This document shows, piece by piece, positions 6,810-61,975 of a stretch of DNA of 64,000 bases. The stretch is from Bdellovibrionales bacterium (GTDB lineage: Bacteria; Bdellovibrionota; Bdellovibrionia; Bdellovibrionales; UBA1609): contig OZ251471.1 in NCBI GenBank assembly GCA_965242635.1, positions 1,426,769-1,490,768 on the forward strand. Reading direction: 5' to 3'. Numbering within the stretch: the stretch's first letter is position 1; the number at the start of each line of letters is the position of its first letter. The notes under the pieces were generated by a model, which ran no database searches, was not told the origin of the DNA, and saw only the letters and a program-made list of their open reading frames with translations. The translations under genes and the position numbers were made by a program.

Positions 6810-7574
6810 ATGAACGGGTATAAGCGTGTGGACTGGATTAGGCTTAAGCCACAACCTGTTATGGGTGTGGATGAGGCTGGCCGGGGGTGCCTGGCCGGGC
6901 CGGTTTTTGCCGGTGCCGTCCTGTTTGTCCCCCAAGCACAAAGCCCTCTTATCCGGTCCTCTGCAAACACAAAGGTCCCCCTTGCAGTAGGGGCTGAGAG
7001 TCCACATCGAGACAAAACAGGCCCTTTCACTCATCCAGAAAAAGAGGGACATTATCCCGATTCCAAGCAAATTTCACCGAAAAACCGGGAAAAACTGGCT
7101 CAAATCATTCGGGGCCGGCATATATACGGTGTGGGTAAGGCCGGTGTGGAGGAGATTGAACGACTGAACATTTTGCAGGCCAGCCTCCTTTCCATGAAAA
7201 GGGCGGTCATGGCTTGTTGGACAAAGTGGCAGACCAATATAACCCCGGCGGAAAAGCAAAAAACACATATTCTGCCAAAAGTGCATATTCTGGTGGATGG
7301 AAATGTTTTAATCCCCGGACTTCCCCCTGATTTTCACCAAACGGCTTTTATAAAGGGGGATCGGCGTCTTTCCCCCATTGCCTCTGCCAGCATTATAGCC
7401 AAAGTCACAAGGGACGGGTGGATAAGACGGCAGGCCAAAAAATACCCTCAATATGATTTTGCCCGGCACAAAGGCTATGCCACCCCTCAACATAAAAAAG
7501 CCATTGCTGAGTATGGCCCCTGCCCTCTTCACCGAAAATATTTTGCCGGTGTCCGGGAACATACTGATATTTAA
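6810..7574 (+). CDS. rnhB: Ribonuclease HII
   Basis: 'GVDEAGRGCLAGPVFAGAV', 'DSKQISPKNREKL', 'VDGN', 'KGDRRLSPIASASIIAKVTRD', 'HKGYATPQH'. Contains a ~33-aa insertion between the first two motifs. Confidence 0.85.
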   Translation: MNGYKRVDWIRLKPQPVMGVDEAGRGCLAGPVFAGAVLFVPQAQSPLIRSSANTKVPLAVGAESPHRDKTGPFTHPEKEGHYPDSKQISPKNREKLAQIIRGRHIYGVGKAGVEEIERLNILQASLLSMKRAVMACWTKWQTNITPAEKQKTHILPKVHILVDGNVLIPGLPPDFHQTAFIKGDRRLSPIASASIIAKVTRDGWIRRQAKKYPQYDFARHKGYATPQHKKAIAEYGPCPLHRKYFAGVREHTDI

Positions 7575-15891: not shown

Positions 15892-17415
15892 ATGAAAACA
15901 GCCCGGCCAAAAGTGCAAAAGCCGTCCTCACCGGCCCTTTCCCCTCCTCTTGGAGTGAGGGTGCATTTTGTGGGCATTGGGGGCATAGGCATGTGCGGGC
16001 TGGCAGAGCTCCTGCACAACTCAGGCAGTGTGGTGACAGGCAGTGACTTGGTGGAAAACCAGCAGGTCCAAAGGCTTAAAAGCCTTGGCATTCCTGTTTT
16101 CAAAGGGCACAAAAAAGCCCACTTGAGCCGGGCGGAAATAGTGGTCAAATCCAGTGCAGTTTCAGAAAGCAATGTGGAGATTCAAAGGGCCCGGTCCCAA
16201 AAAATCCCTGTGCTCCAAAGATCAGAGGCTTTGGCAGAGGTTATGCGATTGAAGCGGGGGTTGGTGGTGGCCGGAACGCATGGCAAAACCACCACCACAC
16301 ATTTACTGTCCCTTATGTTTGTCCGCAACAAAAAAGATCCCACAGTGGTTATAGGGGGTCGCTCTCACCTGTTTAAGTCCACGGCTTTTTTGGGAAAGGG
16401 GGAGTGGTTTATTGCCGAATCGGACGAAAGTGATGGAGGTTTTAAACACCTTTCCCCTGAAATAGCCCTTATCACCAATATCGATCAGGATCATGTGGAT
16501 TACTATGGTTCTTTTGAAAAACTGAAACAGGCTTTTTTGAACTTTGCTCTCAAAACCCCTTTTTATGGCACAGTGGTGGCCTGTGGGGACGATCCGGTTT
16601 TGCGAAAAATGCTGAGCACTTTAAACAGAAAAGTCATTTTTTATGGATTTAACCCCGACAATCATTTTGTGTTAAAAAAAACAGGCCCTCTCAAGTATCA
16701 GGTGTTGGGGCTTCCTGTGACGGGAAAGAGGATCTCTCATCAGTATAAAAAGCTGGGGGCTATGAATATGCCTCTTTACGGTTCCATGAACGGCTTGAAT
16801 GCGTTGGGAGCCATAGCCTCTGCCATGAGTGCCGGGCTTTCTTTTGAGGCTTGCGTGAAAAGCCTTAAAAAATTTAAAGGCATAGACCGTCGATTCCAAA
16901 AAAAAGGGGAGGCCTGTGGCATGGAATTTTACGATGATTACGCCCATCACCCCACAGAAATAAAGGCGGTGCTCTCTGCTTTCAGGGAAAAATGGGGCAA
17001 AAAAAAAAGACTGATTGTGCTGTTTCAACCTCATCGTTTTTCCCGCACCAAGGCCTGCTGGCAGGATTTTCTCACCTGTTTTGAAGAGGCCGACTGCGTG
17101 TTTTTAATGGACATTTACCCGGCAGGGGAGAGGCCTTTGAAAGGCATATCCTCGGCCACTTTGGTCAGGGAGCTGAAACACCCACTGGCTTTTTATCTGC
17201 CGGACAAGCCGGGGGAACAGGCCCTGAAAGCACAAGGTGGATTAAAGCCCGCCGGCAAAGTGGGGGGGAGCTTGACACCCAAGCCACAGATTAAGCGGGG
17301 TGAGGCACTTTCTTTGCCGGCTTTTTTGAAAAAGGGGGATGTGTTGATCACGATGGGGGCGGGATCGGTCTATAAAGAGGGGGAGAAATGGCTCTCTTTT
17401 TTTAAGGGCGATTAA
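15892..17415 (+). CDS. murC: UDP-N-acetylmuramate--L-alanine ligase
   Basis: 'VHFVGIGGIGMCGLAELL', 'VAGTHGKTTTT', 'ESDESDG', 'DDYAHHPTEI'. ATG 15892 preferred (GGAG upstream); the ORF is open from 15826. Confidence 0.9.
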   Translation: MKTARPKVQKPSSPALSPPLGVRVHFVGIGGIGMCGLAELLHNSGSVVTGSDLVENQQVQRLKSLGIPVFKGHKKAHLSRAEIVVKSSAVSESNVEIQRARSQKIPVLQRSEALAEVMRLKRGLVVAGTHGKTTTTHLLSLMFVRNKKDPTVVIGGRSHLFKSTAFLGKGEWFIAESDESDGGFKHLSPEIALITNIDQDHVDYYGSFEKLKQAFLNFALKTPFYGTVVACGDDPVLRKMLSTLNRKVIFYGFNPDNHFVLKKTGPLKYQVLGLPVTGKRISHQYKKLGAMNMPLYGSMNGLNALGAIASAMSAGLSFEACVKSLKKFKGIDRRFQKKGEACGMEFYDDYAHHPTEIKAVLSAFREKWGKKKRLIVLFQPHRFSRTKACWQDFLTCFEEADCVFLMDIYPAGERPLKGISSATLVRELKHPLAFYLPDKPGEQALKAQGGLKPAGKVGGSLTPKPQIKRGEALSLPAFLKKGDVLITMGAGSVYKEGEKWLSFFKGD

Positions 17416-17463: not shown

Positions 17464-17644
17464 AATCGTATTTGAAAATGCAAGGTTCCAATCTGGACAG
17501 GAGGGCAAAACCTCATCAGCGACACCCTTTTCAAAAGGCAGGACCTGCCTCGCGGGTTCTGCCTGCCCCAAGCCAGTTTGGTTTAACTTATTCTAAAGAG
17601 CAATGAAACATTTTTTTATAAAATATGGCTATGAAAAATTCCCA

Positions 17645-17658
17645 CCCCCCCCCCCCCC
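17645..17658. repeat. Homopolymeric C14 tract inside the 5' coding region of the lipoprotein gene
   Basis: Counted directly: 6 C (17645-17650) + 8 C (17651-17658). Confidence 0.95.
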
Positions 17659-17700
17659 GCACCGCGTCATAAGTGGTGGGGTTGTCTGATTGTATCTCTT

Positions 17701-19032
17701 TTGACAGCTTATGCTCTCATCAGCTGTTCAGGAGAGCCGTCCCCATCCCCTGCTCCAGTGGGAAGAAAGACCACCAAGACCATCGACCAGGAAAAACAGG
17801 AGGAAAAGTGTCAGGCCAATCAGGGCAGGCTCTGCTCAGAAGACAAAGAATGCAAAAAAATATGTGATGAGCTTTTTTCCACAAACAGCCATGAAACAGC
17901 TTGTCTGAAATTGCCTGAAGAGACAGTTTCTAATTTTGAAGAACTGCTTGAGGAAATGACAGAAAAAGGCCGGGCCGTGGATATGGATCTCCACACTTTG
18001 GAGTGCTTGTTGGACATAGACGATACAGAGTTTGCCCGTGCCATCAGGAAACTTCCTCGTGAGGAGGCTGAAAAGTTTCTGATTGAAATAGCGGAGGACA
18101 AAAATCTGGCCCGGATTTTGGAGGAGGAAGACGATGAATTTAATATTTTAAAGCAGGTTTTTTCACGGGCGGGTTTGGGGAACAGGTTGCGGGATGTTTT
18201 GACGGAGGAGCTGGAGGACGACAAGAGCTTTTTTCATATTGTGGCCGATGACGAAAATAAGCCGGCATACAAGTGGGTGGAGGAGTATGTGGAGGAGATA
18301 TGTGAGGAGAGGGGGGACACCCTGCAATGCCCCGGCAAGAAAAAGCTTGGAGCTTATTGCAAGGCTTTTTTGCAACACTACAGGTCTTATCTGTCCCGTT
18401 TTTTGTCTCAGGGGGATTTGTTTGAGGAGGACTACCGGAGTAAACTCAAGTCCGGGGGCCACAAGTGGACTGTTTCGGGTTTTAAGGATTTTTGCCGGGA
18501 TGAATACAGTGTGACTTCCTCCAGCAGTGGCAGTGGCAACGGCAATGGTGGTGGCACTCTCGTCTGCACAGCCACAAGAGGTTCCACCACTTCAGCCTGC
18601 CCCTCTTCTTCCCCTCCTTCGGAGTGCAAACTGGCGGATGTAACCCTTGCGACCGTCGGTAATCGGCATATATATACTAAATCTGGTGGGTTTACCATTC
18701 TATCCGGCGTACCCGAAGCACAGGCAGGCTCTATTGACCCACCATCTATAGATAAAATTGGACAGATTTTTCGTCTCGAAACGGGGCTAAAATCAAGAAT
18801 TATGTTAAGCAGTACTGAGATTAGTGAGCTTGCCGCCTTACCCGCCCATACTTGGTATTTGTATATGGACGGAAGACGCTATGCCATGACTCCTATGACT
18901 CGTATTGCAAATCTATTAGCGACGGTTTATCGTTTTACTTTTGCGGACCGACAAAATATCGTCGCAGGACAATACAGCATTCATCTGGCTTATGAGGATT
19001 CCAGTAACCATTGCCACTGGATCCGCCCATAA
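17701..19032 (+). CDS. Lipoprotein, acidic Cys-patterned N-domain. Its true start (ATG 17631) is out of frame across the C14 tract
   Basis: The called ORF begins inside a signal peptide ('TAYALISCSG', lipobox LISC). Deleting 1 C joins it to 'MKNSHPPPPAPRHKWWGCLIVSLL'. Pattern C-x5-C-x3-C-x12-C is shared with 54482..55636. Confidence 0.7.
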   Translation: MTAYALISCSGEPSPSPAPVGRKTTKTIDQEKQEEKCQANQGRLCSEDKECKKICDELFSTNSHETACLKLPEETVSNFEELLEEMTEKGRAVDMDLHTLECLLDIDDTEFARAIRKLPREEAEKFLIEIAEDKNLARILEEEDDEFNILKQVFSRAGLGNRLRDVLTEELEDDKSFFHIVADDENKPAYKWVEEYVEEICEERGDTLQCPGKKKLGAYCKAFLQHYRSYLSRFLSQGDLFEEDYRSKLKSGGHKWTVSGFKDFCRDEYSVTSSSSGSGNGNGGGTLVCTATRGSTTSACPSSSPPSECKLADVTLATVGNRHIYTKSGGFTILSGVPEAQAGSIDPPSIDKIGQIFRLETGLKSRIMLSSTEISELAALPAHTWYLYMDGRRYAMTPMTRIANLLATVYRFTFADRQNIVAGQYSIHLAYEDSSNHCHWIRP

Positions 19033-51436: not shown

Positions 51437-51521
51437 CTTGACAGCCACAAACCAGGTGGTGTATAAGAGGCCTGTAGTAAACCGGCCTTTTTTCAGGACC
51501 GATCCAAGAGGTTTTATAGCC

Positions 51522-52496
51522 ATGATCCATCAGATCACAAATACCCCAAACCAAAAAGCCTGCCGGCAGGGCCAAGGCCCCATCTCGCTTGTTTGTCCGG
51601 GGCTGGCCCTTGTTATTTTTGCCACCCTGTTTTTCGGACTGGGGGCCTGCAACCAAAATCAGGCCGGAAAGCGTGGCTCCGACAGCCAACTGGTGGACAT
51701 AAGAATATCCAGTGGAGGGGAAGCTTTGGGTGGGAGGCCCTTGGTGTATCTCCATGAAGGCGGGACAAAGATATGCCGGAGGGGCTTGCCCGATCCAAAG
51801 GTCTATGGTCTGACCCATAAAAACTGTGGAATAGAGGAGGAGGAAGAAGAGGAGACGGCTTCCGACACCGGCACCACAACCACCACCACAGACACGGAGA
51901 CCACAACCACCACAGAAGAAGAAGAGGAGGATAACGAAATACCCCATACGGTGGGGAAAAACTGGTTTGAAACTGGCCTGTTTATTGTCAATAAATCCAC
52001 AACAGAGTGGCTTATTATAGAAAGCATCTCTTTTACAATATATGGCACCTGGGGCAATACAGCTTTGCAGGGGCAAAAGGAGCTTAGCTCCGGTTATTGT
52101 GGCACGACTCCACTTTATAAAATTCCCCCTTCCCCCAAAGGTTCCTCCGCCAATTCCACACAGGTCCGACGCGACTTATTGTATCAGCCCAACCAGAGCG
52201 ATGTCCTGAACAACCTGAAATTGTATATCGATGGAGTGCCCATCCCCACTGCCCCGCCGGAGACGAGGGATGCGGAAGGGGGAGGGGGGGGGGAGCAGGC
52301 CCGATCCCCAGGAGATCAGGGGACAGCAGGGGGCAATCAGGTTGAACCTGAGCCTGAGCTTTTTGTCTTGGATCGTCTGCCCCATTACCGGGTGCAGGCT
52401 TTGGCACGTGGGTATTGGATAAACGAAAAATGTGAAACCATGCACAACTTCGAAAAAAAGTTCCGCTTTTCCCTCTCCTCCTCCTTCCAAAACTAA
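51522..52496 (+). CDS. Lipoprotein with acidic/Thr-rich linker
   Basis: 'LVIFATLFFGLGAC' lipobox. 'EEEEEEETASDTGTTTTTTDTETTTTTEEEEED'. Contains an in-frame G10 tract. Preferred over antisense ORF 51291..52076. Confidence 0.6.
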   Translation: MIHQITNTPNQKACRQGQGPISLVCPGLALVIFATLFFGLGACNQNQAGKRGSDSQLVDIRISSGGEALGGRPLVYLHEGGTKICRRGLPDPKVYGLTHKNCGIEEEEEEETASDTGTTTTTTDTETTTTTEEEEEDNEIPHTVGKNWFETGLFIVNKSTTEWLIIESISFTIYGTWGNTALQGQKELSSGYCGTTPLYKIPPSPKGSSANSTQVRRDLLYQPNQSDVLNNLKLYIDGVPIPTAPPETRDAEGGGGGEQARSPGDQGTAGGNQVEPEPELFVLDRLPHYRVQALARGYWINEKCETMHNFEKKFRFSLSSSFQN

Positions 52497-59314: not shown

Positions 59315-59962
59315 ATGCAACAAAAAAGCAAAATTTTTTCAAACAAACAGGGCCTTTGTGTATTGAAAAGGCTGATGGTGTGCTCTGTGGCCCTGATCTT
59401 GGGGTGGAATCTGGCTTATGGTGCGGATTCTGACAGCTCAGCGGGGCAAAACCGCCTCCAACAGCAAAAGAACGAAAAACCAAAGCCGGCCTGGGATTTT
59501 GATACAAAAGAGGACAGGGAACCCAATCCCAACGAATACCAAGTCCCAACAGCTCCTCCGACTGACTTGTCGCCTGAGATATCAGTGCTGAAATTGTCTT
59601 TTCATCGTTGGCCCAATAAAAAGGAAACTGCTCTCATTATAAAATACGCCACGGAACATGGTTTAAAAAAAACAGATGCTTTTTTTAAAAAGTGGTTTTT
59701 TGAATTGGATGAACCAAAAAGCTATGGTGTGGCCTCGAGGATTTGTGACGGTTTTCCCAAACTTCCTTCCATTAAAATTTGTTCACCGAGCGATCCTTCA
59801 GATCGAGGGTATGCCCAAAAACATTCTGTTGGATTGTCTGCACCACAAATGCCACATTATAATACTTGCAACCTGGCTAAAGACCATCGCAAGTATTGGG
59901 TACAGAACCTGATTGGCACTGATCTTTTAAGAGAGGAACTTAAAAAAAAAAGCCGGAAATAA
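59315..59962 (+). CDS. N-terminal part (signal peptide + pro-region) of a subtilisin-family protease, terminated after an A10 run
   Basis: Signal 'LMVCSVALILGWNLAYGA'. Ends '..YWVQNLIGTDLLREELKKKSRK*'. See 60064..61686. Confidence 0.7.
   Translation: MQQKSKIFSNKQGLCVLKRLMVCSVALILGWNLAYGADSDSSAGQNRLQQQKNEKPKPAWDFDTKEDREPNPNEYQVPTAPPTDLSPEISVLKLSFHRWPNKKETALIIKYATEHGLKKTDAFFKKWFFELDEPKSYGVASRICDGFPKLPSIKICSPSDPSDRGYAQKHSVGLSAPQMPHYNTCNLAKDHRKYWVQNLIGTDLLREELKKKSRK
59942..59951. repeat. A10 homopolymer at the frame break of the S8 protease gene
   Basis: Counted directly. The downstream reading frame is open from 59944. Confidence 0.95.
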
Positions 59963-60063
59963 AAATTAATATCGCTTTATTTGAAGTCCCCACAACCCTT
60001 AAAAATATTCACCATGATACAGCCGTTCAACATCTCATTGCCGGTCCAGGCCCTCATGCCGTT

Positions 60064-61686
60064 TTGCCCATGGTGTCCAAAAATAATCCTCAACTGCGGG
60101 TTTTTCCCATACACTCAAATAATTCCATTGGCAAGTATATTAAAAATTTTGAAGAAACTGTTAAAAAAACCTGCCAAGCTCATCCCCATTATCAAACACT
60201 GGAATATGAAAAGTGTGTTCAGGGTATTTACCCTCATTATATTAACTTTTCTGTAGGGTATCACAAAGAGCCTGAAGATTTTACTTATGTAAAATATCAA
60301 AACTGGCCAAAAAAGGAAAAACAGAGGATAGAAAAAGAAGCCAGAGAGCATTTCAATAAAAAATCTTCGGGCTCTTTGACAGAGCAGGAAATAAAAAAAT
60401 TTCTTCAGCACAGAAAAGACAGACTTGAAGATGATTATCAAGACATTTCATCTGCTTTTGCAAGGGCCAGTTTTTACAGCACTTTGGTTCAATCGGCTGG
60501 TAATGACGGTAAGAACAATAAGCCTGTTTCCTCGGTCGCTGTCCAAAACTCTCAGTCAGCCAATGCCATTATTGTGGGGAGCCTGACTCCCAATGGCTCC
60601 AAAAGCTCCTTTTCTCAGGAACACCCCGAAGTGCATATTATGGCACCGGCAGATAAAAGCATTGGCACAACCAATGCTTTTGGCCAAACAGTGAACTTTA
60701 GTGGCACCAGTGCCTCTGCCCCTTTGGTCACCGGGGCTTTAGCCTCTTTTAACTGGATGTCCGGCTATCACCCCACACCCGAAGAGTCCAAAATCCTATT
60801 GCGAATGACAGCTGTCCCGCATAAATACTCCAACAACAAACCCCGGACAAATGGTTTTGGCATGCTCAATGCCTATAAAATAGGCATGCTGGGCAAAAAG
60901 TTAAAAGAAAAATGTGGTGGGCTTAAACACTGTTTTAAAATGAGTCTCAGGGATGACAAAACTTATAACGACTTGTTGGAATATGATAAGAATTTGTTTA
61001 AGGATGTGGAAAAGGCTTTTCCTGAGTGCAGTCAGTTGGCTTGTGCCGGGCCGGCACAAGCCACAAGTTCCTGTTCAGAGAAAAAAGAGGTGTTAAAAAG
61101 GCTGAGAAAGCAGGCTTTTTTAAGGCCCTGGAGTCATGAGATGTGGAGACATTTGTCCTGTATTTATGCGGGTTCTGGTTTTAAAGACACTTCAGAGTCA
61201 ATGATAAACAGTTACATGGCTCTTTTTCAACATGATAAAACACATGATAACAGGCATTACTGTAAAACAGATGAGGATTGTGTGTTGGTGCCGGAGTGTC
61301 CACAAACTGTTTATGCCAATAAGCAGGGGATTTCGCAAATGAAGGCCTTAAACAGGATGATGGCAGAGGCTTATTATAATTTGGAATATTATGGCAAGTG
61401 CCGGCAAAAGCCCAGGTGTAATGACAAATGCCGTTGTGGGAACAGGGAAAGGGTGTTACAGAAGGAGGAAACAGATCCCAAGACAGGCGGGAAGGTGTTG
61501 TCGTATACTGAATATAAGGCCAGTTGTGTGAATGCACGATGTGTTTTAAGTAAGGATAAGGTGCTTGAGCAGGCCGGGCTGTCCAAAAAAGCCATAAAGG
61601 GGCCGGCAAAGGCCACAAAGCCTGCTCCTTTACCGGATCCGCCTTTGAAAAGTGCCAAAGGGACATCTGCTGGCTCTGTGAAGTAA
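60064..61686 (+). CDS. Subtilisin-family (S8) serine protease catalytic and Cys-rich C-terminal part. The frame extends upstream to 59944 and includes the His motif
   Basis: 'INFSVGY', 'SAGNDG', 'GTSASAPLVTGA'. Upstream in-frame 'IALFEVPTTLKNIHHDTAVQHLIAG' has no start codon of its own. Confidence 0.8.
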   Translation: MPMVSKNNPQLRVFPIHSNNSIGKYIKNFEETVKKTCQAHPHYQTLEYEKCVQGIYPHYINFSVGYHKEPEDFTYVKYQNWPKKEKQRIEKEAREHFNKKSSGSLTEQEIKKFLQHRKDRLEDDYQDISSAFARASFYSTLVQSAGNDGKNNKPVSSVAVQNSQSANAIIVGSLTPNGSKSSFSQEHPEVHIMAPADKSIGTTNAFGQTVNFSGTSASAPLVTGALASFNWMSGYHPTPEESKILLRMTAVPHKYSNNKPRTNGFGMLNAYKIGMLGKKLKEKCGGLKHCFKMSLRDDKTYNDLLEYDKNLFKDVEKAFPECSQLACAGPAQATSSCSEKKEVLKRLRKQAFLRPWSHEMWRHLSCIYAGSGFKDTSESMINSYMALFQHDKTHDNRHYCKTDEDCVLVPECPQTVYANKQGISQMKALNRMMAEAYYNLEYYGKCRQKPRCNDKCRCGNRERVLQKEETDPKTGGKVLSYTEYKASCVNARCVLSKDKVLEQAGLSKKAIKGPAKATKPAPLPDPPLKSAKGTSAGSVK

Positions 61687-61835
61687 GGTTCTTTTGTTTG
61701 AAACACGGAGTTCTGCCTTGGACACAAAGTGTCCCGCAGGAATGACAGATTCTCTGCTTTTCAGGCAAATAAGGGTGCAGGCAGGCTTGCCCCTCAAAGT
61801 GGGCTTGTGCTATGCTTGAGCCTGCCTCAACCAAA

Positions 61836-61975
61836 ATGGTCGCAAACCGTGAGGCAATGGTCGCAAACCGACTGGCAATGGTCGCAAACCGTGAGGCAAT
61901 GGTCGCAAACCGACTGGCAATGGTCGCAAACCGACTGGCAATGGTCGCAAACCGACTGGCAATGGTCGCAAAAAT
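61836..61975. repeat. 21-bp tandem repeat x ~6.5 upstream of the cupin gene
   Basis: ATGGTCGCAAACCGTGAGGCA (A) / ATGGTCGCAAACCGACTGGCA (B), order A-B-A-B-B-B-partial. Confidence 0.95.

Follow-up and report, generated by a model that had tools for sequence, protein, structure and literature searches.

Bacterial RNA polymerase slips efficiently on runs of nine or more A or T residues (PMC5009743), mostly so as to add bases to the transcript (PMC5574713). The resulting mRNAs with extra bases yield both a short and a long product from dnaX of Thermus thermophilus (a run of 9 A/T) and from spa13, mxiE, mxiA and spa33 of Shigella (PMC5009743), and frameshifts at poly(A) tracts in Buchnera and Blochmannia are described, in accounts that cite the original study, as rescued by polymerase infidelity (Tamas et al., 2008, as cited in PMC5574713 and PMC5009743; PMC3017870). 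Here we describe a run of ten A residues (A10) that divides the gene for a predicted secreted protease of the subtilisin (S8) family in a 64,000-nt stretch of a Bdellovibrionales genome (contig OZ251471.1 of assembly GCA_965242635.1; 'the window' below). The run is out of frame at the homologous position in every readable copy of the gene in its clade, and the sequence on both sides of it is under purifying selection. We weigh the possibility that it is a conserved slippery site against several rival explanations.

A pre-pro-subtilase gene divided by an A10 run

The first open reading frame (ORF1; 215 aa) lies in the zero frame and ends ...GTDLLREELKKKSRK, its TAA stop closing the unshifted product three codons past the run. 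The A10 starts at codon position 1 of this frame (CTT AAA AAA AAA AGC) and contains A AAA AAA, a heptamer of the X XXY YYZ type, in zero-frame phase. The -1 frame is closed by a TAA at 59941-59943, is open from 59944 (where it reads KKKPEIKINIALFEVPTTLKNIHHDTAVQHLIAG...) and continues for 580 codons to its stop at 61684-61686; its earliest ATG, GTG or TTG is a TTG at 60064, the next being an ATG at 60070. One additional A would give a continuous protein of 790 aa, and removal of two would give one of 789 aa. Either an extra A in the mRNA or a -1 slip of the ribosome would lead to the same junction, ...ELKKKKPEI.... The run, the end of ORF1, the -1 frame open from 59944, the lack of a start codon before 60064 and the joining of the two frames by a single A into a pre-pro-protease of about 790 aa had all been put forward in an earlier annotation of the window made from its letters (the original prediction), and all were reproduced.

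In ORF1 a signal peptide (about aa 1-36, ...LAYG/A) is followed by a low-complexity linker, a prodomain (aa ~88-158) of beta-alpha-beta-beta-alpha-beta fold, another linker and, at the 3' end, the first helices of the mature subtilase (YWVQNLIGTDLLREELKKK). The prodomain is assigned by its fold match, because a Pfam scan of ORF1 matched no prodomain family (such as I9). The product of the -1 frame (ORF2), for which no signal peptide is predicted, takes up the enzyme at strand 1 and includes an insertion of ~150 residues between the His and Asn positions and a Cys-rich C-terminal domain (15 of the 17 Cys lie within the last ~280 aa). Peptidase_S8 (PF00082) matches the fused protein with an E value of 5.8e-17 (62.4 bits, cut-off 21.8) at residues 355-509, which is the Asn-Ser half only, and a profile search of the PDB finds intracellular subtilisins and subtilisin BPN', again over the Asn-Ser half only. 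Full-length homologues (773-876 aa, 31-37% identity) are unbroken across the junction (...GTDLLKEELEKAPPVKKHLVAVFD...RHD...), where they show the pattern ...YWAQ..IG.DLL.EEL.K..P....xAVFD....H...V.NLI.... An AlphaFold model built on an alignment of full-length homologues has a mean pLDDT (predicted local distance difference test score) of 69, with 80-95 in the catalytic core. Foldseek comparisons of the model gave template-modelling (TM) scores of 0.63-0.67 against mature subtilisins and, against pro-subtilisin E (3whi) and EpiP (3qfh), aligned 485-530 columns and covered the prodomain.

The order of catalytic residues expected in family S8, D-H-(N)-S, is present except in its first member: H234, N397 (of SAGN) and S466 (of GTSASAP) are in place, but the Asp position is occupied by E224. 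All nine full-length homologues in our alignment (A1) have the Asp of xAVFD at this point, other copies of the gene have the D of LFDD, LLD or VFD, and in the model E224 stands at the C-terminal end of strand 218-223 (INIALF), ahead of the helix that begins at H234 and of N397 and S466. The original prediction had tentatively read a Glu at the catalytic Asp position (IALFEVP) and had called for an alignment to S8 profiles to place the triad; that reading is confirmed, as the alignment puts the Asp position at E224, the His at H234 and the Ser at S466, in agreement with the other copies and with the model. Because of this substitution the protease activity of the window copy may be weakened or lost.

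The idea that the two ORFs are one protease gene in need of joining is borne out by the continuity of the homologues, by the match to the pro-subtilisin fold and by selection on the start-less stretch between the run and the first ATG (see below). The evidence thus supports a single pre-pro-subtilase gene that can be read through only by a change of frame at the A-run.

Table 1. Coordinates of the divided protease gene and its principal features in the window
Feature	Position	Strand	Description
ORF1	59315..59962	+	signal peptide, linker, prodomain, linker, first helices of mature subtilase
A10 slippery run (candidate)	59942..59951	+	A10 in 10/11 clade copies, also in L003
Zero-frame stop TAA	59960..59962	+	end of unshifted product
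-1 frame	59944..61686	+	subtilase catalytic domain from strand beta-1 onward, plus C-terminal domain
Glu224 (GAA), catalytic Asp position	59983..59985	+	Asp in all other copies/homologues
His234 (CAT), putative catalytic His	60013..60015	+	N-terminus of helix HDTAVQHLIA
Asn397 (AAT), oxyanion-hole Asn of SAGN	60502..60504	+	alignment, PDB profile match
Ser466 (AGT), catalytic Ser of GTSASAP	60709..60711	+	alignment, PDB profile match

Conservation of the out-of-frame run

DNA was taken for every indexed protein at least 43% identical to the fused query, which gave 11 clade copies from four assemblies: the window copy; L001, L082 and L083 (assembly ERZ25068279); L085 (ERZ25068281); and L084, L086, L087, L088 (two copies) and L100 (ERZ25070167) (L and P numbers are our own labels). 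None of the 11 is in frame at the run. Ten have exactly A10 in the -1 geometry, the remaining one (L001) having A9, and the run begins at codon position 1 in all nine copies tested for this. A zero-frame TAA or TGA at the position of the window stop is found in the window and in nine A10 copies of ERZ25068279, ERZ25068281 and ERZ25070167, but not in L086. The last, at 43% identity, retains the A10 among differing flanking codons (CAT A10 TTC), and in L085 a T directly follows the run. Beyond the clade, the -1 geometry recurs in L003 (35% identity), where the junction again has A10 (...NKKK/NQNLVTAFD), and in L007, which has A12 just before IGFFD.

The protein databases give the same picture. 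At 43% identity or more to the fused query, every protein is annotated as a fragment of 535-578 aa whose start lies at or after the His motif. Likewise, when ORF1 was compared by phmmer with 1.84 billion representatives, its seven closest relatives were all stand-alone ORFs (194-226 aa) and no full-length protein was closer than E 1e-11. Eight clusters (at most 50% identity) terminate right after DLLREELKKK, three of them in the window genome, whose further ORF1 copies of this kind are P0038 and P0041 (50% identity). These are the ORF1 partners of the window-genome paralogues P0001, P0002 and P0010, which were available at the protein level only; the family is multi-copy, with at least four copies in the window genome. 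The two protein searches found no in-frame full-length protein closer than 36% identity, and the best match in a scan of the GTDB genomes (from which the window species is absent) was also 36% identical. Short-read copies were sought by scanning metagenome contigs of the Joint Genome Institute (JGI) for CTTA(8-12)CCGGAAATAA, which produced 11 chance matches and no protease.

The residues at the run vary between copies (L, H or N before it; K or N, then P or S, after it), and distant homologues have EELKKxxPPE at the junction and no KKKK. The constraint therefore acts on the nucleotide run and not on the protein, and what is conserved is the run itself. The comparison of orthologues proposed in the original prediction accordingly turned up an out-of-frame run at the homologous position in every readable clade copy. 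The A10 split is thus no chance feature, and its conservation across paralogues and species makes a one-off error or a recent pseudogene unlikely.

The family is confined to metagenome-assembled genomes (MAGs) of Bdellovibrionales, Oligoflexia and Bacteriovoracales, many of them of 1.4-2.5 Mb, and further out-of-frame poly-A runs occur, at positions other than the A10 junction, in the 5' third of homologues: two A12 in L007 (2032-2043 and 5257-5268, a linker A12 being among the runs of this locus), an N-terminal A11 in L009 (2477-2487), an A10 in L017 (3273-3282) and a second A10 in L001 (3490-3499). The runs in L007, L009 and L001 need one additional nucleotide, L017 needs two compensating shifts, and the direction in L004, a further related locus, is uncertain. 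Such recurrence suggests either the repeated evolution of slippage sites or a shared artefact.

Maintenance of both halves

Nine copies were repaired at the run, and the ratio of nonsynonymous to synonymous substitution rates (dN/dS) was estimated by the NG86 method in three segments. No internal stop was found in any of the nine repaired coding sequences. The ratio was 0.26-0.74 for ORF1, 0.14-0.87 for the start-less stretch and 0.18-0.49 for the rest of the downstream frame (540 codons), and dS between the window copy and other lineages ranged from 1.0 to saturation. Both halves are therefore under purifying selection: with dN/dS below 1 at dS above 1, they have been kept coding, and the run has remained A10, over a time in which each neutral site changed about once.

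This bears directly on the possibility that the copies are decaying or redundant paralogues, broken at the most mutable site of a multi-copy gene. The existence of at least four family members in the window genome, the extra breaks in L001, in the second L088 copy and in L017, and the loss of the catalytic Asp from the window copy might all be taken in that sense. They have to be set against the low ratios of the 540-codon downstream frame and values below 1 in ORF1 at dS above 1, against nine repaired genes free of any other stop, and against the presence of the same break in paralogues that are only 43-50% identical. The selection data contradict pseudogenization, even if a few of the copies look damaged, and we assign it only a very small probability.

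Slippage as a proposed means of decoding

If the frame is not restored in the DNA, how might the protease be made? We infer that the A10, which follows helix 1 of the mature domain and precedes the strand bearing the Asp position, interrupts the reading frame by design. Standard decoding would then yield a secreted 215-aa product consisting of signal peptide and prodomain, and the full 790-aa zymogen would come only from mRNAs to which RNA polymerase had added one A, with ribosomes slipping -1 on A AAA AAA as a possible lesser contributor. The outcome would be a fixed mixture of free prodomain and low-level full-length protease. Subtilase prodomains usually act both as foldases (chaperones) and as inhibitors of their cognate proteases, and from this general knowledge of subtilases a set ratio of free prodomain to zymogen would be a plausible purpose of the arrangement.

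The locus has what would be expected of transcriptional slippage, namely an A/T run of at least nine at the junction and a conserved out-of-frame arrangement with both frames under selection. It also has the phased slippery heptamer of a -1 ribosomal frameshift site. The 70 nt past the run, folded in six copies, gave no sign of a downstream RNA structure (z from -0.9 to +1.2), and a search for a Shine-Dalgarno-like element upstream found a purine stretch (GAGAGGAA / GAGAAGAG) that is not conserved as such. With no downstream structure, slippage on the run alone fits better than a stimulated -1 frameshift. The transcriptional form is favoured because the direction needed is +1 (as in all but one of the frame-breaking runs whose direction could be determined), because no stimulatory element was found and because the A9 copy could not use a -1 slip. 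A scan for promoters and terminators at the locus gave nothing usable.

Several observations weigh against this interpretation. L001, with its A9, needs the loss of one nucleotide and has its second A10 break besides, and the additional breaks in the second L088 copy mean that some copies may be decaying. A requirement for one more nucleotide in all but one of the runs of determined direction is also the pattern that undercalling would leave. As AAA makes up 71% of the Lys codons, a pure A run in KKK(K) is not very improbable, and the conserved wrong frame is a stronger fact than the purity of the run. The case for slippage is built here on assembled DNA and proteins, and in Buchnera Traverse and Ochman found no restoration of frame by transcription errors (PMC5574713). 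With these points in the balance, we give about an even chance to a conserved slippery site whose decoding depends chiefly on the addition of one A by RNA polymerase, possibly with some -1 slipping or sliding of ribosomes on the poly(A). More tentative is the broader proposal of an obligatory, conserved recoding site that gives a fixed ratio of prodomain to zymogen. Such sites would have evolved more than once, at poly-A runs, within a protease family of Bdellovibrionales with small genomes in which true fission took place as well.

Is the run really A10?

The main alternative to slippage is that the true run is A11 (A13 in L007) and that long-read consensus calling systematically loses one base, the gene being ordinary and continuous. 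Judging by contig names such as contig_1 and ctg393418_6.99x_l, all copies with the junction run come from apparent long-read metagenome assemblies, some with a coverage of only 4.6-7x, and no short-read assembly of the window clade was found; a search of the literature for papers citing the assembly accessions also found none. A junction with A11, EELKK-KK-PE, would moreover fit the EELKKxxPPE of the distant homologues.

Other runs in the same assemblies provide an internal control. Long intact ORFs of the window contain nine other runs (seven A9 or T9, one A10 and one C8). The A10 among them (16999-17008, encoding GKKKR) is in frame in the essential gene murC, with the Mur_ligase_C domain spanning it, which implies that the organism tolerates a sizeable fraction of frameshifted murC transcripts. 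Two further 10-nt runs stay in frame, a T10 in an SSF transporter gene 100 nt downstream of a broken protease on a 7x contig and an A10 inside the L009 protease. Even in the 4.6-7x assembly, ~114 runs of 6-9 nt in long ORFs are in frame against one possible break; there, all five A10 runs in an ORF context are protease junctions. Apparent breaks at shorter runs of the window were set aside as junctions of neighbouring ORFs, the two largest proving, when checked with Pfam, to be boundaries of complete genes (LigA and a downstream ORF; polyprenyl synthase and a SpoIIE-like phosphatase). The protease gene is the sole broken gene within the 64 kb; the GC content is 46%.

Nor is there scatter in the lengths, ten of the 11 clade copies having exactly A10. 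An A12 in L004 (103-114), on an Illumina k99 contig of a related MAG, seems to be out of frame as well, the upstream ORF there being cut by the contig end. In addition, G/C runs of 14-15 nt are called in these assemblies, as befits high-accuracy reads. We therefore think a systematic undercall unlikely. A conserved true A11 would still be a strong slippage site with the same two products, the default product being reversed.

Phase variation and other homopolymer tracts

The run lies 27% of the way into a gene bearing a signal peptide, a location typical of contingency tracts, so it could be a hypermutable switch: most cells would be OFF (A10 or A9), and rare A11 or A8 variants would turn paralogues ON. 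Poly(A) tracts are known as reversible switches, for example in inlA of Listeria (PMC2831843). The product belongs to a secreted multi-copy family, run length does differ between copies (A9 and A10), and in the same genomes surface-protein genes have long G/C runs at their 5' ends (a C14 ahead of a lipoprotein signal peptide, for example). A population of switching genes should, however, include some in the ON state, and none was seen among the 11 copies examined as DNA, the copies known as proteins only, or the results of the two protein searches. Nor are the OFF lengths spread over both wrong frames (ten A10, one A9, never A8 or A11), and exact A10 has been retained across lineages at dS above 1. 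With no ON allele seen and no scatter in the lengths, classical phase variation is disfavoured, and we consider it distinctly improbable.

Among the four causes offered in the original prediction (-1 frameshifting, transcriptional slippage, phase variation and error), slippage is therefore the favoured one and ON/OFF switching the disfavoured one, and error, implausible as a single event, survives as the systematic undercall, to which we have given a low probability.

The C14 mentioned above (17645-17658, in the region 17625-17760) is located between ATGs at 17625 and 17631 and a lipoprotein-type signal peptide (..KWWGCLIVSLLTAYALISC) in front of a 443-aa ORF (17701-19032). At this run length the ATGs miss the frame by one base, as would be the case in a lipoprotein gene subject to poly-C phase variation and switched OFF. 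In a second genome, L082 contains a G14 (1857-1870) and a G15 (7536-7550, the same site as 1817-1831 of L083), one of its G runs being at the 5' end of a minus-strand gene for a 607-aa protein (71-1894). The lineage thus seems to be characterized by G/C contingency tracts. A G10 in the window (52284-52293) falls in a GC-rich stretch of an ORF without a Pfam match (51438-52496), with ORFs overlapping on the other strand. Finally, a 21-bp tandem repeat (AATGGTCGCAAACCGACTGGC; 6.6 copies, 92% matches) is found at 61835-61972, in the spacer that separates the protease gene from a small cupin-like ORF.

Relatives that are truly split

An independent start for ORF2 was considered and rejected, as the frame has no start codon ahead of 60064 and its product lacks a signal peptide. 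A start at 60064 or later would deprive the product of the Asp-position and His residues, and no Shine-Dalgarno sequence is found ahead of the ATG at 60070. Without a usable start, Shine-Dalgarno sequence or signal peptide, ORF2 could not stand alone.

Genuine gene fission would require ORF1 and ORF2 to be two proteins, the second made by re-initiation or coupling at the ORF1 stop. Such an origin has precedents, in that L002, L010, L006 and L016 are truly split relatives whose two ORFs start independently and each encode a signal peptide, and in L100 the ORF1 stop is overlapped by an ATG (ATGA). Near the ORF1 stop, however, the window copy and the other copies have ATA or ATT and no ATG, GTG or TTG, L100 being the exception; ORF2 has no signal peptide yet includes a Cys-rich domain; and the break separates helix 1 from strand 1 within the catalytic domain. 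Fission in the window clade is in our view extremely improbable.

In L100 (2484-2510) the codon after the run is ATG and not ATA, which creates a stop/start overlap (AAA TGA / GAA ATG AGA) of a layout typical of translational coupling, and the gene caller took that ATG as the start of P0037.

The split relatives are of two kinds. In L002 (2950-4560), which has two tandem copies and belongs to a sister lineage, the prodomain ORF stops and, two codons on, a second ORF begins (MKKQRPVCFFVFLLYIF...) with its own signal peptide and goes on to encode the linker and catalytic domain; prodomain and enzyme are here a genuine pair of genes. In related Bdellovibrionales the split lies between His and Asn (L010, 3400-4000; L006, 3430-4100; L016, 3370-4000), as it does in about ten further representatives (P0046, P0048, P0049, P0052, P0061, P0064, P0070, P0074, P0086, P0097 and P0100). 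In these, ORF-A carries the prodomain, Asp and His, and ORF-B (e.g. MMNKFFALALFFCSMPAPA...) carries FINxS, Asn and Ser, and both ORFs have a start and a signal peptide of their own. It would be unusual for an S8 protease to be split in nature and its parts secreted separately. The original prediction named true two-gene orthologues as a ground for abandoning it: they do occur, but among distant relatives split elsewhere, and not in the window clade. As the split sites differ, the two-gene relatives do not refute the frameshift reading for that clade.

Significance and comparison with known systems

Should the run truly be A10, the gene would join the few cellular bacterial genes (those belonging neither to an insertion sequence (IS) nor to a phage) whose decoding depends on conserved slippage, and we know of no earlier such case in a secreted protease. 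One gene would then encode an enzyme together with its own inhibitor and chaperone in a set ratio. If instead the run is A11, it would be a useful marker of systematic homopolymer error in public complete MAGs. The clade is at present annotated by gene callers as having 'S8 peptidases' of 535-578 aa with neither signal peptide nor prodomain and with the Asp and/or His missing, plus hypothetical proteins of ~200 aa; as a result of this mis-splitting, function prediction is wrong for a whole paralogue family of uncultured, probably host-associated Bdellovibrionales.

The protein has in common with subtilisin pro-enzymes (MEROPS S8; 3whi and 3qfh) the N-terminal prodomain, the order of the Asp, His, Asn and Ser positions, PF00082 and the fold. 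It differs from them in the very short spacing between the Asp and His positions (10 residues), in the ~150 residues inserted between His and Asn, in the Cys-rich C-terminal domain and, in the window copy, in the Glu that replaces the catalytic Asp; Pfam and PDB sequence profiles detect the C-terminal half of its catalytic domain only.

Among systems in which frames are joined, the -1 frameshifting of E. coli dnaX and of IS elements (A AAA AAG) likewise involves a phased A-rich heptamer, a nearby zero-frame stop and a -1 frame that encodes the remainder of the protein. The window gene, in contrast, has no stem-loop, pseudoknot or conserved Shine-Dalgarno-like element, its run far exceeds a heptamer in length, and a -1 slip could not serve the A9 copy. 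The poly(A) frameshifts of Buchnera and Blochmannia, as they are summarized in the accounts cited above, resemble it in occurring in a small genome (~2 Mb here, and of host-associated appearance), in the break at an A-run of at least ten, in continued purifying selection and in an expected rescue. On the same accounts they differ from it, for here there is no genome-wide AT-rich decay and one site is conserved across a paralogue family. As in Listeria inlA (PMC2831843), a secreted or surface protein is encoded, the tract is in the 5' third of the gene and expression would depend on frame, but the window family shows no ON alleles and its run length is nearly invariant. Like T. thermophilus dnaX and the Shigella genes, finally, this is a chromosomal gene with an A/T run of at least nine. 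The long product of T. thermophilus dnaX is that of the zero frame, whereas the long product here would need a slip, as do those of mxiE and spa13; and the gene is set apart from these by the nature of the host gene, a predicted secreted protease, and by the position of the run inside the catalytic domain.

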